Shown: in pieces, positions 6,253-8,381 of the stretch
Numbering within the stretch: position 1 is the stretch's first letter
How the letters are laid out: each line of letters begins with the position of its first letter
Source of the DNA: Escherichia coli
GTDB lineage: Bacteria > Pseudomonadota > Gammaproteobacteria > Enterobacterales > Enterobacteriaceae
Length of the DNA: 64,000 nt
NCBI RefSeq assembly: GCF_011045215.1
Contig: NZ_CP049201.1
Direction: 5' to 3' (one strand)
Position numbers and translations under genes: made by a program
The notes under the pieces: generated by a model
Told to the model about the DNA's origin: nothing
Database searches by the model: none
Seen by the model: the letters and a program-made list of their open reading frames with translations, nothing else

Positions 6253-6533
6253 CCCTCAAAATTTCTCCTTCACTCTATAGTCTTTTCGCTTTACTCCCGT
6301 TCATTCAACTTAAGTCTCCATTTTTTTACATTACTGCTATCTGTCAGACCTCCGTTTTTCTGTTGATAAAACACTCTTTTTGACGTTTTTACAGACTAAT
6401 TGAGCGTGAAGTGTGCAAACGATAAAAGTGTGGGAAAAATTGTTTGACTTATAAGTCTCAGAAAGTAATATGTGCGCCACGCAGCGACGATGAGCGATAA
6501 ACAAGTTCTTCGAAGCACTCGTAAGAGGCGTGT

Positions 6534-6626
6534 GGTGAGGTGGCCGAGAGGCTGAAGGCGCTCCCCTGCTAAGGGAGTATGCGGTCAAAAGCTGCATCCG
6601 GGGTTCGAATCCCCGCCTCACCGCCA
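6534..6626 (+). tRNA. serV: tRNA-Ser (anticodon GCU)
   Basis: GGTGAGGTGGCCGAGAGGCTGAAGG...GGTTCGAATCCCCGCCTCACCGCCA with long variable arm; matches E. coli serV from memory. Confidence 0.95.
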
Positions 6627-6629
6627 TTT

Positions 6630-6706
6630 GCATCCGTAGCTCAGCTGGATAGAGTACTCGGCTACGAACCGAGCGGTCGGAGGTTCGAATCCTCCCGGAT
6701 GCACCA
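6630..6706 (+). tRNA. argV: tRNA-Arg (anticodon ACG), copy 1
   Basis: GCATCCGTAGCTCAGCTGGATAGAGTACTCGGCTACGAACCGAGCGGTCGGAGGTTCGAATCCTCCCGGATGCACCA, 77 nt. Confidence 0.95.
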
Positions 6707-6905
6707 TATTCTCCGAAATCTTCAGCAATGAAGATATCGAAGAGGTAGCGGAATTAACCGCAGGCACCAGGAAGGATAACGTTGCTTTAGCAACGGCCCG
6801 AAGGGCGAGCCGCAAGGCGAGTAATCCTCCCGGATGCACCATCTCTTACTTGATACGGCTTTAGTAGCGGTATCAAAAAATCTGCAGTAAAGTAAGTTTC
6901 CCGAT

Positions 6906-6982
6906 GCATCCGTAGCTCAGCTGGATAGAGTACTCGGCTACGAACCGAGCGGTCGGAGGTTCGAATCCTCCCGGATGCACCA
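6906..6982 (+). tRNA. argY: tRNA-Arg (anticodon ACG), copy 2
   Basis: Identical 77-nt tRNA-Arg sequence; symbol assigned by order only. Confidence 0.93.
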
Positions 6983-7181
6983 TATTCTCCGAAATCTTCA
7001 GCAATGAAGATATCGAAGAGGTAGCGGAATTAACCGCAGGCACCAGGAAGGATAACGTTGCTTTAGCAACGGCCCGAAGGGCGAGCCGCAAGGCGAGTAA
7101 TCCTCCCGGATGCACCATCTCTTACTTGATACGGCTTTAGTAGCGGTATCAAAAAATCTGCAGTAAAGTAAGTTTCCCGAT

Positions 7182-7258
7182 GCATCCGTAGCTCAGCTGG
7201 ATAGAGTACTCGGCTACGAACCGAGCGGTCGGAGGTTCGAATCCTCCCGGATGCACCA
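7182..7258 (+). tRNA. argZ: tRNA-Arg (anticodon ACG), copy 3
   Basis: Identical 77-nt tRNA-Arg sequence; symbol assigned by order only. Confidence 0.93.
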
Positions 7259-7457
7259 TATTCTCCGAAATCTTCAGCAATGAAGATATCGAAGAGGTAG
7301 CGGAATTAACCGCAGGCACCAGGAAGGATAACGTTGCTTTAGCAACGGCCCGAAGGGCGAGCCGCAAGGCGAGTAATCCTCCCGGATGCACCATCTCTTA
7401 CTTGATACGGCTTTAGTAGCGGTATCAAAAAATCTGCAGTAAAGTAAGTTTCCCGAT

Positions 7458-7534
7458 GCATCCGTAGCTCAGCTGGATAGAGTACTCGGCTACGAACCGA
7501 GCGGTCGGAGGTTCGAATCCTCCCGGATGCACCA
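7458..7534 (+). tRNA. argQ: tRNA-Arg (anticodon ACG), copy 4
   Basis: Identical 77-nt tRNA-Arg sequence; symbol assigned by order only. Confidence 0.93.
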
Positions 7535-7814
7535 TATTCTCCGAAATCTTCAGCAATGAAGATATCGAAGAGGTAGCGGAATTAACCGCAGGCACCAGGA
7601 AGGATAACGTTGCTTTAGCAACGGCCCGAAGGGCGAACGCCAGTGAGTCATCCTCCCGGATGCACCATCTTCTCCAAAAAATTTCCTTCAAAAATATCTC
7701 ATTTCTAAATAACTACTTTATCCATTTCCTGAATTTTCTTCTCCTTCGCCATCAGCGACAAAATCAAGCAATTACGCTAAAGTAGCGTCATATTTTTCGA
7801 CTTGCGAGAAGACC

Positions 7815-8381
7815 ATGTACGAGCGTTATGCAGGTTTAATTTTTGATATGGATGGCACAATCCTGGATACGGAGCCTACGCACCGTAAAGCGTGGCGCGA
7901 AGTATTAGGGCACTACGGTCTTCAGTACGATATTCAGGCGATGATTGCGCTTAATGGATCGCCCACCTGGCGTATTGCTCAGGCAATTATTGAGCTGAAT
8001 CAGGCCGATCTCGACCCGCATGCGTTAGCGCGTGAAAAAACAGAAGCAGTAAGAAGTATGCTGCTGGATAGTGTCGAGCCGCTTCCTCTTGTTGAAGTGG
8101 TGAAAAGTTGGCATGGTCGTCGCCCAATGGCTGTAGGAACGGGGAGTGAAAGCGCCATCGCTGAGGCATTGCTGGCGCACCTGGGATTACGTCGTTATTT
8201 TGACGCCGTCGTCGCTGCTGATCACGTCAAACACCATAAACCCGCGCCAGACACATTTTTGTTGTGCGCGCAGCGTATGGGCGTGCAACCGACGCAGTGT
8301 GTGGTCTTTGAAGATGCCGATTTCGGTATTCAGGCGGCCCGTGCCGCAGGCATGGACGCTGTGGATGTTCGCTTGCTGTGA
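7815..8381 (+). CDS. yqaB: HAD-family sugar phosphatase (fructose-1-phosphate phosphatase)
   Basis: 188-aa ORF with HAD motif I (IFDMDGTILDTE). Confidence 0.9.
   Translation: MYERYAGLIFDMDGTILDTEPTHRKAWREVLGHYGLQYDIQAMIALNGSPTWRIAQAIIELNQADLDPHALAREKTEAVRSMLLDSVEPLPLVEVVKSWHGRRPMAVGTGSESAIAEALLAHLGLRRYFDAVVAADHVKHHKPAPDTFLLCAQRMGVQPTQCVVFEDADFGIQAARAAGMDAVDVRLL

Follow-up and report, generated by a model that had tools for sequence, protein, structure and literature searches.

tRNA-linked repeats in the serV-argVYZQ tRNA operon of Escherichia coli and the variable number of its tRNA-Arg genes

In a stretch of 64,000 nucleotides from an Escherichia coli chromosome (contig NZ_CP049201.1; hereafter, the window), the tRNA-Arg genes form a tandem array, and each gene is followed by a spacer that carries a second copy of the tRNA's 3' end. 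What are these spacers, and does the repeated tRNA end tell us how the array arose? A sequence-only reading had described the repeated ends as pseudo-fragments and had taken them as a sign of expansion by unequal crossing-over. We estimate a probability of roughly 80% that the array is a known tRNA operon with tRNA-linked repeats (TLRs) that are processed together with the tRNAs, and that it has been reshaped by recombination.

The array itself is as had been described, with four copies of a 276-bp unit in the tRNA-Arg cluster. TRF reports positions 6629-7670 of the window as one tandem array (period 276, 3.8 copies, 99% matches, score 2042). ARAGORN and Rfam identify a tRNA-Ser(GCU) gene and four identical 77-nt tRNA-Arg(ACG) genes (Table 1). 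Each 276-bp unit begins with the 77 nt of a tRNA-Arg(ACG) gene, continues with a TLR of 135 nt, and closes with a 64-nt linker; a fourth, terminal TLR lies behind the last tRNA gene. Units 1-3 are 100% identical to each other; unit 4 agrees with them through nucleotide 178, up to about 7635, and differs beyond that. The array is genuine and far above chance expectation, and it is ordinary in kind.

The chromosome belongs to the E. coli lineage, and at positions 6534-7690, between csrA and yqaB, it carries the serV-argV/Y/Z/Q tRNA operon. The gene order (alaS, csrA, tRNA-Ser, four tRNA-Arg genes, yqaB, yqaA, gshA) matches that of K-12, and the flanks are at least 99% identical to those of 3,972 complete E. 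coli genomes (99.9% for strain PapM-32-1). Judging from its position about 60 nt upstream of tRNA-Ser, a promoter-like site is likely to be the operon's promoter. A terminator-like hairpin ahead of yqaB (7815-8381) is similarly placed for the end of the operon, which is a possible role for it.

Table 1. Features of the serV-argVYZQ locus, in positions of the window
Feature	Position	Strand	Evidence
Promoter-like site (TTGACT, 16-nt spacer, TAATAT) upstream of serV	6444..6471	+	Consensus scan only
tRNA-Ser(GCU), serV orthologue, first gene of the operon	6534..6626	+	ARAGORN; Rfam tRNA 56.8 bits; position as K-12 serV
tRNA-Arg(ACG) copy 1	6630..6706	+	ARAGORN; Rfam tRNA 67.1 bits
TLR 1, 135 nt, allele 'c'; 19-nt copy of tRNA 3' end at 6823-6841	6707..6841	+	Rfam RtT below threshold; alignment to K-12 tyrT RtT repeats; fold
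TLR 1, predicted 5' hairpins	6710-6743, 6748-6761	+	Fold
TLR 1, predicted 5' strand of closing helix	6764-6777	+	Fold
TLR 1, predicted hairpins 1, 2, 3	6778-6795, 6796-6806, 6809-6818	+	Fold
Linker, 64 nt, with 5' leader of the following tRNA	6842..6905	+	Identical to K-12 argV-argY linker
tRNA-Arg(ACG) copy 2	6906..6982	+	ARAGORN, Rfam
TLR 2, same sequence as TLR 1; pseudo-3'-end 7099-7117	6983..7117	+	Unit comparison, 18-mer count
Linker, 64 nt	7118..7181	+	Unit identity
tRNA-Arg(ACG) copy 3	7182..7258	+	ARAGORN, Rfam
TLR 3, same sequence as TLR 1; pseudo-3'-end 7375-7393	7259..7393	+	Unit comparison, 18-mer count
Linker, 64 nt	7394..7457	+	Unit identity
tRNA-Arg(ACG) copy 4	7458..7534	+	ARAGORN, Rfam
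Terminal TLR, 133 nt; 18-nt pseudo-3'-end 7650-7667	7535..7667	+	Unit and strain comparison; Rfam RtT 22 bits
Terminator-like hairpin ACGCTAAAGTAGCGT then CATATTTTTC	7774..7788	+	Consensus scan only
Four antisense ORFs, judged non-genes	6618-6842 (74 aa), 6873-7118 (81 aa), 7149-7394 (81 aa), 7425-7691 (88 aa)	-	ORF listing

Every TLR begins at the base right after the CCA of a tRNA-Arg gene, and the TLRs end in ...GGAUGCACCA at 6841, 7117, 7393, and 7667. The 18-mer ATCCTCCCGGATGCACCA occurs eight times in the window: at the four true tRNA ends and in the spacers at 6824, 7100, 7376, and 7650 (0.00 expected from shuffling). [quoted passage not shown] The repeated end had been put at about 21 nt in each spacer. 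A second tRNA 3' end does lie behind each gene, but the 21-mer is present just three times (at 6821, 7097, and 7373), and its match to the tRNA covers just the final 19 nt (AATCC...CCA), together with the T after the CCA. In the fourth spacer, the copy reads GTCATCC..., with 18 nt that match the tRNA end instead of the full 21-mer. This last spacer had also been called diverged; it does differ beyond nucleotide 178 of the unit, but it is a separate terminal TLR, with 100% identity to its counterpart in O157:H7 strain FRIK2069 and 93% to the one in K-12.

The spacers of the Arg operon (133-135 nt) are TLRs, of the same family as the tyrT RtT repeats, and not debris from crossing-over. The TLRs of E. 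coli K-12 were described by Egan & Landy 1978 and Rudd 1999, as summarised in Stenum et al. 2021 (PMC8144298), which gives 22 copies at 10 loci. As published, TLRs are found within tRNA or rRNA operons and have an 18-19 bp 3' end that is identical to the upstream tRNA or rRNA; the family includes the tyrT RtT repeats and the RrA/B/F RNAs of rrn operons (PMC8144298). The Arg spacers lie in a tRNA operon directly downstream of a tRNA gene, and their last 18-19 bp are the upstream gene's 3' end. They also share a core with other TLRs, as seen in alignments to the K-12 tyrT repeats and to Rfam's RtT and at about 46 listed loci. The window TLRs and the K-12 tyrT repeats have in common AACGTTGC-loop-GCAACGGCCCGAAGGGCGA...GAGTAATCC, followed by the tRNA-specific end. 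Both the array and the spacer type are already known: this is a textbook tRNA operon with a repeat family that has been catalogued since 1978-1999, so the array should not be flagged as new.

At Rfam's gathering threshold, the tRNAs alone pass across the window, and RtT surfaces only in E-value mode. Against the full model (RF00391), the four TLRs score 27.8, 27.8, 27.8, and 22.0 bits, with the 3' half aligning cleanly, and TLR 1 reaches 32.7 bits (E = 5.9e-5) in a local, 5'-truncated alignment. The Arg TLR is a relative of RF00391 that falls outside its curated cutoff (gathering score) of 45 bits.

We also scanned genomes with a 17-mer from the core as the query. Of the at least 120 loci that this gave, we set aside about 60% as matches by chance or to coding sequence in GC-rich genomes (such as Streptomyces). 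Among the matches listed, the core lies behind tRNA-Tyr, tRNA-Lys, tRNA-Arg(ACG), tRNA-Pro (CGG and UGG), and 5S-type ends across the Enterobacterales. Listed elements that end in the 3' end of 5S rRNA are from Superficieibacter, Pseudocitrobacter, Phytobacter, Rahnella, and Siccibacter. For most of the listed cores with an upstream tRNA (37/44), a stretch of at least 14 nt agrees exactly with the 3' end of that very tRNA, and the matching extends to species-specific variants, such as the tRNA-Arg of Hafnia (ATCTTCCTGGGTGCACCA). Because the pseudo-3'-end is a defining feature of TLRs and is also present behind single tRNA and 5S rRNA genes, always matching the local gene (PMC8144298), it is not evidence of unequal crossing-over, contrary to the sequence-only reading.

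TLR 1 has a predicted fold of -53 kcal/mol (z = -5.0), and the predicted fold, with a closing helix on the pseudo-end and three hairpins, is conserved. When we folded 13 Arg, Tyr, Lys, and Pro TLRs independently, the pseudo-end paired with an upstream strand in 12 of them, and 1-8 nt of ...CCA were left unpaired in 12. Compensatory changes are seen between Hafnia and E. coli (GGAAG/CUUCC vs GGAGG/CCUCC). The 5' region of a TLR is predicted to pair better with its own 3' end than with the ends of other types (-16.9 vs -12.4 kcal/mol; 28/30 cases), and two positions in hairpin 1 carry compensatory pairs. When we aligned the core with MAFFT and ran RNAalifold, hairpins 1 and 2 were recovered but the length-variable hairpin 3 was misaligned, so we counted hairpin 3 by script with a chimera control. 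Its 38 distinct sequences have 15 distinct stem strands, and at least 3 bp form in 76% of them, versus 21% of the chimeric controls. This covariation argues that the TLR fold is under selection. The conserved hairpins could instead reflect constraints at the level of DNA.

Within the window, the closing helix of the 'c' allele has a mismatch (GGAAGG for GGGAGG) and is predicted at -13.2 kcal/mol, compared to about -17 to -20 kcal/mol in relatives. The terminal TLR is identical to TLRs 1-3 for its first 102 nt and has a degenerate hairpin 3 (ACGCCAGT). Folding the tRNA, TLR, linker, and next tRNA as a single 353-nt RNA was uninformative, as the two tRNA copies pair together; the 3' domain of the TLR still forms.

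If the pseudo-ends say nothing about how the array expanded, does anything else? For a strain census, we combined 60 rows sampled from 5,425 E. coli genomes with nine loci that we inspected. A comparison of copy number with other strains had been proposed, and the nine inspected loci have 2-6 tRNA-Arg genes each. Array architectures vary widely between E. coli strains: the spacer alleles that other strains have at these positions differ from one another (a, b, and c), and individual TLRs are precisely present or absent. Where a TLR is missing, a near-identical linker of 62-64 nt alone separates the tRNA genes, so that the tRNA is followed exactly by the linker. For instance, PapM-32-1 lacks only the terminal TLR, and its TLR 3 is 100% identical to TLR 1 of the window. 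In strain 2014C-4135, where there are six of the tRNA genes, the alleles run a-b-c-b-c-d, which is a two-unit duplication. A search of 5,426 complete E. coli genomes with the identical three-unit block (828 nt) gave no full-length, single-piece match among the top 60 rows; the best place among these has 98.7% identity in four pieces, but because the search tiles a repetitive query onto single units, this result is suggestive and not a strict census.

As far as the array is concerned, the claim of expansion by unequal crossing-over (or gene conversion) holds up, given the three identical units here versus alleles a, b, and c elsewhere and the duplication in 2014C-4135. The strain comparison shows that the 276-bp units recombine unequally or convert one another, which alters the number of tRNA-Arg genes. 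In this strain, spacer allele 'c' has replaced the others, giving three identical units. The TLR-less junctions match what deletion between the 19-20-bp direct repeats of the true and pseudo tRNA ends would produce, which suggests recombination as their route.

How might TLRs be processed? By analogy with rtT and RrB, they would be transcribed together with the tRNAs of the operon. In the predicted structures, the closing helix forms between the pseudo-3'-end and a complementary stretch nearer the 5' end of the TLR; it would keep ...ACCA unpaired and would resemble the acceptor stem stacked on the T stem in the cognate tRNA. Because of this resemblance, the enzymes that cut behind the real tRNA (RNase E, then 3' exonucleases) would cut behind the TLR as well. 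Such cutting would free a discrete structured RNA of about 135 nt per TLR, again by analogy with rtT and RrB, and would leave every tRNA copy with an identical trailer and leader. The 3' terminus of RrB is 3 nt past its repeat, and the repeat was proposed as an RNase E recognition signal (PMC8144298). According to the same paper, the sole phenotype once credited to rtT RNA was later retracted, so TLRs could be tolerated, self-perpetuating spacers without a function.

We also considered that TLRs might be functional mimics of the cognate tRNA's acceptor/T-arm "minihelix," with the T loop swapped for a conserved three-hairpin module, or that the module might be a propagating element. The Arg TLR (GCACCAG-GGAGG-AU[module]AAU-CCUCC-CGGAUGC-ACCA) can be set against the tRNA (GCAUCCG...GGAGG-UUCGAAU-CCUCC-CGGAUGC-ACCA). 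If TLRs are mimics, they would be produced in fixed proportion to their own tRNA and might serve as decoy or buffer substrates for enzymes that recognise the 3' end or T arm of a tRNA, such as RNase E, RNase P, 3' exonucleases, the CCA-adding enzyme, or T-loop modification enzymes; alternatively, after landing behind a stable RNA gene, the module would copy the 3' end of that gene. We view this proposal as improbable.

Could the repeated ends be something other than part of a TLR? It is very unlikely that they are tRNA pseudo-fragments left by unequal crossing-over and lacking any identity of their own. It is true that the array evolves through unequal exchange and that the fragment has the same sequence as the tRNA 3' end, but the same design of core plus fragment is found behind single tRNA and 5S rRNA genes in many genera, and the literature uses the pseudo-end to define the TLR family (PMC8144298). 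Also, the same conserved core always precedes the fragment, a co-varying 5' strand pairs with it, and the terminal TLR bears a pseudo-end with no tRNA gene following. A direct repeat of a tRNA 3' end around an insert is the classic mark of integration at tRNA genes, which raises the idea that the pseudo-ends are attachment-site duplications from integrase-mediated insertion and that the TLR is a decayed remnant or a miniature, non-autonomous derivative. The precise presence or absence of TLRs between strains would fit, as would the presence of the core next to the 3' ends of six or more different stable RNA genes. However, recombination between the 19-20-bp repeats explains presence and absence equally well. 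The insert measures just about 116 nt. Between the tRNA and the 3' fragment there is neither an integrase nor another mobile-element gene, nor a sense ORF of 30 amino acids or more, and each unit has one such insert, placed within an operon and between tRNA genes. Furthermore, the 5' strand co-varies with the tRNA end and the hairpins are compensatory, which points to a selected folded transcript instead of decay. We give an origin by integration only a very slim chance.

Other alternatives concern what the TLRs might encode or bind. The Arg TLR RNAs could be trans-acting regulators that report transcription of the tRNA operon, for example by binding CsrA or Hfq as RrA/B/F do; this operon lies directly downstream of csrA. 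RrB binds both proteins in vitro (PMC8144298), each Arg TLR has four GGA triplets, and the structure is conserved. CsrB and CsrC-type RNAs expose several GGA triplets in hairpin loops, but the four in each Arg TLR are in predicted stems. The 19 tRNA-operon TLRs of K-12 score below 0.01 in InvenireSRNA, a predictor for RNAs of the CsrB/C type, and RrA/B/F are called unique in the family (PMC8144298); even for these, phenotypes are modest. A regulatory role is therefore unlikely, and because of the stem location and the published predictions, we dropped the specific idea of a CsrA sponge. The antisense ORFs almost certainly do not encode small proteins. Four ORFs of 74-88 amino acids had been reported as beginning with MVHPGG and as spurious but prone to mis-annotation; all four exist, but the 88-aa ORF starts at TTG (MKEIF...). 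The exact 81-aa sequence has been deposited in public protein collections, in a cluster whose members are named "hypothetical protein, partial [Escherichia coli]," and K-12 annotates an analogous protein, YchS, antisense to the tyrT TLRs. But the antisense ATG is just the complement of the tRNA's CCA and the following T, and the ORF passes antisense through a tRNA gene. From this same ATG, the ORF ranges from 6 to 216 amino acids and shifts frame among E. coli alleles, Enterobacter, Phytobacter, Brenneria, and Hafnia, so neither length nor frame is conserved, and the variation tracks covariation of the RNA hairpins and not codon structure. PGAP annotates no CDS at these ORFs in the complete genomes that we inspected. 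The 81-aa frame does not align with YchS, and a 40-aa antisense frame matches it at 14 of 19 aligned positions; YchS is the same sort of artefact. On the sense strand, we found no small ORF like tpr of at least 30 amino acids in the spacers; by eye, there is a single ATG-started sense ORF, of 6 codons.

Reading the locus as a tRNA operon with TLRs has consequences for annotation: the array yields antisense ORFs that have reached protein databases as hypothetical proteins, and Arg-type TLRs are missed by Rfam's RtT model. It also bears on gene dosage. The serV-argVYZQ locus is the site of all of the tRNA-Arg(ACG) genes, and tRNA-Arg2 is the only tRNA substrate of TadA. When the tRNA-Arg2 genes were cut from four to one, the tRNA fell 16-fold, growth in rich medium slowed, and editing of individual RNAs was altered, while duplication of the operon lowered mRNA editing globally (PMC13170351). 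The 2-6 copies in the strains that we inspected represent natural variation in this dosage.

How do the Arg TLRs compare with known systems? The TLRs that K-12 has at this locus are near-identical (87-97% identity to the window TLRs), but there are three of them, of three alleles, plus one TLR-less spacer; the window has four, and three of these share one sequence. The pseudo-tRNA fragments of K-12 that adjoin cryptic prophages are duplications of tRNA 3' ends at attachment sites. [quoted passage not shown] 3'ETS-leuZ, as cited in PMC8144298, is a functional by-product of tRNA-operon processing, and the Arg TLR RNAs could be another; it acts as an sRNA sponge, and its sequence is unrelated to the Arg TLRs.

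The closest relatives are within the TLR family. The 178-bp repeats of tyrT (RtT, RF00391; rttR of K-12) have the same order of a tRNA, an element with a pseudo-3'-end, and the next tRNA. Their 3' half and that of the Arg TLRs are homologous and share hairpin 1, GCCCGAAGGGC, hairpin 3, and GAGTAATCC, and the predicted closing helix is on the pseudo-end in both. However, the Arg type scores 22-33 bits, while the true K-12 tyrT copies score 133-137 bits (the threshold is 45). The 5' half of the Arg type is unrelated, without the hairpin region that contains TTCGA and without a tpr-like ORF, and its end is from tRNA-Arg instead of tRNA-Tyr. RrA, RrB, and RrF, the TLRs behind 5S rRNA in rrnA, rrnB, and rrnD, belong to the same family, but they are placed between two terminators, end in the 3' end of 5S rRNA, and bind CsrA and Hfq in vitro (PMC8144298).

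The tandem array of 276-bp units that the sequence-only reading had described in the tRNA-Arg cluster is real: it is supported by TRF (one array with 3.8 copies, 99% matches, and a score of 2042), ARAGORN, Rfam, and the identity of the units. Units 1–3 are 100% identical across the whole 276 nt, and unit 4 matches them for 178 nt and diverges afterwards. The local gene order is alaS, csrA, tRNA-Ser, four copies of tRNA-Arg, yqaB, yqaA, and gshA; this locus is the serV-argV-argY-argZ-argQ operon of K-12. The 3 kb of flanking sequence matches 3,972 complete E. coli genomes at 99% identity or more, and strain PapM-32-1 at 99.9%.

Features of the array and of the rest of the window (window coordinates)
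Feature	Position	Evidence or remark
Promoter-like site	6444-6471	consensus scan only
tRNA-Ser(GCU)	6534-6626	ARAGORN and Rfam
Tandem array, period 276	6629-7670	TRF
Four identical tRNA-Arg(ACG), 77 nt each	starts 6630, 6906, 7182, 7458	ARAGORN and Rfam
Match to RF02902	6758-6852	Rfam
GCACCAGGAAGGAU, strand closing the multibranch domain	6764-6777	predicted fold
40-aa antisense ORF of the Arg core	6787-6909 (-)	aligns with YchS
Terminal (fourth) TLR	7535-7667	behind the last tRNA
Terminator-like hairpin	7774-7788	consensus scan only
tRNA-Met(CAT)	39588-39663 (+)	sole further tRNA in the window

Because the spacers belong to the family of tRNA-linked repeats (TLRs), each unit can be divided into a tRNA (77 nt), a TLR (135 nt), and a linker (64 nt). 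The family goes by this name in the literature and was first noticed in 1978 (PMC8144298). Rudd's 1999 catalogue, as summarised in PMC8144298, contains 22 TLRs at ten K-12 loci. By definition, the 18–19-bp 3' end of a TLR is an identical copy of the end of the adjoining upstream tRNA or rRNA gene, and TLRs are described as having "no known function" (PMC8144298). The window spacers have all of the TLR-defining features that are testable. The 18-mer ATCCTCCCGGATGCACCA occurs 8 times, at the four true tRNA ends and in four spacer copies (shuffle expectation, 0.00). A 21-nt copy of the tRNA end had been claimed for each spacer; this 21-mer does occur three times, but just its final 19 nt match the tRNA. 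Direct alignment of the Arg TLR with the K-12 tyrT repeats gives a common core, AACGTTGC-loop-GCAACGGCCCGAAGGGCGA-(short hairpin)-GAGTAATCC, downstream of which both switch to the local tRNA 3' end (TCCCGGATGCACCA for Arg and TTCCCCCACCACCA for Tyr). We did not find the core elsewhere in the 64,000-nt window.

A scan for a 17-nt core, with one genome per species, found at least 120 loci. About 60% of those listed match by chance or within coding sequence, in GC-rich genomes, and at least ~46 have a genuine element, mainly in Enterobacterales and in a few other Gammaproteobacteria. The 3' end after the core is that of tRNA-Tyr, tRNA-Lys, tRNA-Arg(ACG), tRNA-Pro(CGG or UGG), or 5S rRNA. Among the 44 listed cores with a same-strand upstream tRNA, 37 are followed by 14 nt or more (typically 18–22 nt) that exactly match the 3' end of that same tRNA, and lineage-specific tRNA variants, such as Hafnia tRNA-Arg ATCTTCCTGGGTGCACCA, are mirrored in this pseudo-end. 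The element is old, given that Arg-type TLRs also occur in Enterobacter, Phytobacter, Brenneria, and Hafnia. Because the core and a matching local tRNA or 5S end recur across genera, the pseudo-fragment is intrinsic to the element, and array expansion is not its source.

In Pectobacterium zantedeschiae, the core (hairpin 1 plus GCCCGAAGGGT) lies inside a 73-bp tandem repeat with 2.8 copies (L092 980-1187, and L091). No tRNA gene was found in either locus, so the module exists beyond tRNA operons too. In the 5S-type TLRs (loci L018, L094, L096, L110, L111, L121, and L123), the core lies between GAGAGTAGGAC... and ...AACTGCCAGGCAT, which we take to be the 3'-terminal sequence of 5S rRNA; in L018, a tRNA-Thr gene is next downstream. 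The cores in a Pasteurellaceae MAG (L076, L077) and in Photobacterium (L063) have no obvious tRNA-type 3' end within the 50 nt downstream. The weak match of Aggregatibacter sRNA 22 (RF02902) to the window TLR (16.9 bits) suggests that this RNA is a Pasteurellaceae relative of the TLRs.

The predicted fold of the window TLR (-53 kcal/mol, z = -5.0) has a multibranch domain behind two 5' hairpins. The domain is closed by pairing of GCACCAGGAAGGAU with AUCCUCCCGGAUGC and has three hairpins inside; ACCA is free in the centroid structure. Across 13 independently folded TLRs (Arg, Tyr, Lys, and Pro types), the pseudo-end pairs with an upstream strand in 12, and 1–8 nt of ...CCA are left unpaired in 12. 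Between E. coli and Hafnia, the tRNA end changes from CCUCC to CUUCC, and the 5' strand changes to match, from GGAGG to GGAAG. Pairing with the 5' region of a TLR reaches -16.9 kcal/mol for the 3' end of that TLR, versus -12.4 kcal/mol for the ends of other types (the former better in 28/30). Hairpin 3, with 38 distinct sequences and 15 distinct stem strands, has at least 3 bp in 76% of sequences versus 21% of chimeric controls, and hairpin 1 shows compensatory changes at two positions. The covariation argues for selection on the TLR fold. The 5' strand can be likened to the 5' strands of the tRNA's acceptor and T-stem (GCACCAG plus GGAGG versus GCAUCCG plus GGAGG), and the Tyr, Lys, and Pro types visibly keep the T-stem 5' strand and TTCGA. 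We infer that the 3' domain resembles a cognate-tRNA minihelix in which the module replaces the T loop.

We measured array length as the span between the flanks, using a flank-only query and a spread sample of 60 genomes (~58 usable). The K-12 type (~1018 bp) was found in 24 genomes, ~744–756 bp (the single locus examined has three tRNAs) in 14, and ~1151–1163 bp, with four tRNAs and four TLRs like the window, in 11. The O157:H7 type (788 bp) was found in 4 genomes; other architectures of ~723–726, ~849–852, and 878–890 bp in 2, 2, and 3; and 1703 bp, with six tRNAs, in one. The sequence-only reading had proposed comparing copy number with other E. coli: in the nine loci that we parsed, the number of tRNA-Arg genes ranges from 2 to 6. 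Four or more TLR alleles can be told apart in these nine loci (a, b, c, and a terminal type), each at characteristic positions, and strain 2014C-4135 has a-b-c-b-c-d, a two-unit duplication. Single TLRs are present or absent between strains, and the TLR-less spacers (62–64 nt) are the exact junction predicted by recombination between true and pseudo 3' ends, as seen in K-12, O157:H7, A39, WP7-S18, and PapM-32-1.

In the window array, the alleles run c-c-c, followed by the terminal type. The c allele matches TLR 3 of PapM-32-1 at 100% identity, and the terminal TLR matches its counterpart in O157:H7 FRIK2069, also at 100%. Since the three-unit block has no full-length identical match among the best-ranked complete E. 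coli genomes (the search tool tiled the query repeat-wise), and since the exact 81-aa antisense ORF that crosses the unit junction is called on 10 public contigs, recent homogenisation via unequal exchange or gene conversion is well supported. Unequal crossing-over, as originally proposed, holds for the array itself, but not for the pseudo-fragment, which belongs to the element itself.

The 102-nt spacers of O157:H7 FRIK2069 (L126 1954-2055) and WP7-S18-ESBL-09 (L128 2088-2189), and a 210-nt tail in the latter (L128 2267-2476), lack the pseudo-3'-end and are neither full TLRs nor plain 62–64-nt linkers; they are probably partial TLR deletions. In E. coli strain 124 (NZ_CP048344.1, H47), an IS2 transposase is annotated between the flank matches, and the span exceeds that of K-12 by ~1.3 kb. 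The top-ranked three-unit matches, from Origami2-DE3 (H91/L130) and BL21(RP) (H92), are in an odd tRNA-Lys/tRNA-Gly/tRNA-Arg cluster near the record end, among broken prophage pseudogenes. This cluster may derive from a rare-codon tRNA plasmid whose sequence was joined to the chromosome record during assembly, and it is irrelevant to the natural locus.

Four antisense ORFs (MVHPGG...) had been flagged as spurious and liable to mis-annotation. All four are present, and the warning was apt: the exact 81-aa sequence is deposited in a cluster of 28 members, the named ones being listed as "hypothetical protein, partial [Escherichia coli]". The start ATG is the complement of CCA and the next T, and the ORFs cross a tRNA gene on its opposite strand. 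From the same start, the length varies from 6 to 216 aa, and the frame shifts among alleles, strains, and genera. A coding gene fails its tests, as frame and length are unstable among relatives; PGAP calls no CDS at this locus in complete genomes. K-12 ychS ("putative uncharacterized protein YchS"; L003 1210-1485, +) is antisense to the tyrT TLRs, and the C-terminus of YchS aligns with the 40-aa antisense ORF (14/19 residues, E = 7e-7), in a frame that differs from the 81-aa frame. YchS, too, is probably such a spurious ORF.

The analysis shows a conserved, structured spacer that is matched to the tRNA end. We propose that the TLR would be co-transcribed with the tRNAs, that the pseudo-end and the closing helix would mimic a tRNA 3' context, and that RNase E and 3' exonucleases would set the end at the pseudo-end, releasing a discrete RNA. 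For RrB, a TLR behind 5S rRNA, recognition of the repeat by RNase E has been proposed (PMC8144298). A trans-acting role for the Arg TLR RNA is possible but unsupported: tRNA-operon TLRs score below 0.01 in a published predictor of CsrB/C-type RNAs (PMC8144298), and the GGA triplets of the window TLRs sit in predicted stems. The window TLR fails the tests for a CsrA sponge, and also those for an att-site remnant.

The remaining interest of the locus lies in the function of the TLRs, where the covariation argues for a selected fold, and in tRNA-Arg2 gene dosage, which this locus determines and which measurably affects growth and TadA editing (PMC13170351).

Among known systems, a close comparison is RtT (RF00391), the tyrT repeats of K-12. 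The Arg TLR is a relative, yet it lies below the RtT threshold: the three internal spacers score 27.8 bits each and the terminal one 22 bits, against a gathering score of 45 and 133–137 bits for the K-12 tyrT copies. A local search gave 32.7 bits (E = 5.9e-5), and the 3' half aligns convincingly. The annotated rtT RNA of K-12 ends exactly at the pseudo-CCA, in line with the processing proposed for the Arg TLR, and rrA, rrB, and rrF (PMC8144298) are the counterpart of the 5S-type TLRs. The element is already known in kind, and known at the same locus in K-12; what is particular to this strain is the homogenised arrangement with three identical units, and nothing else.
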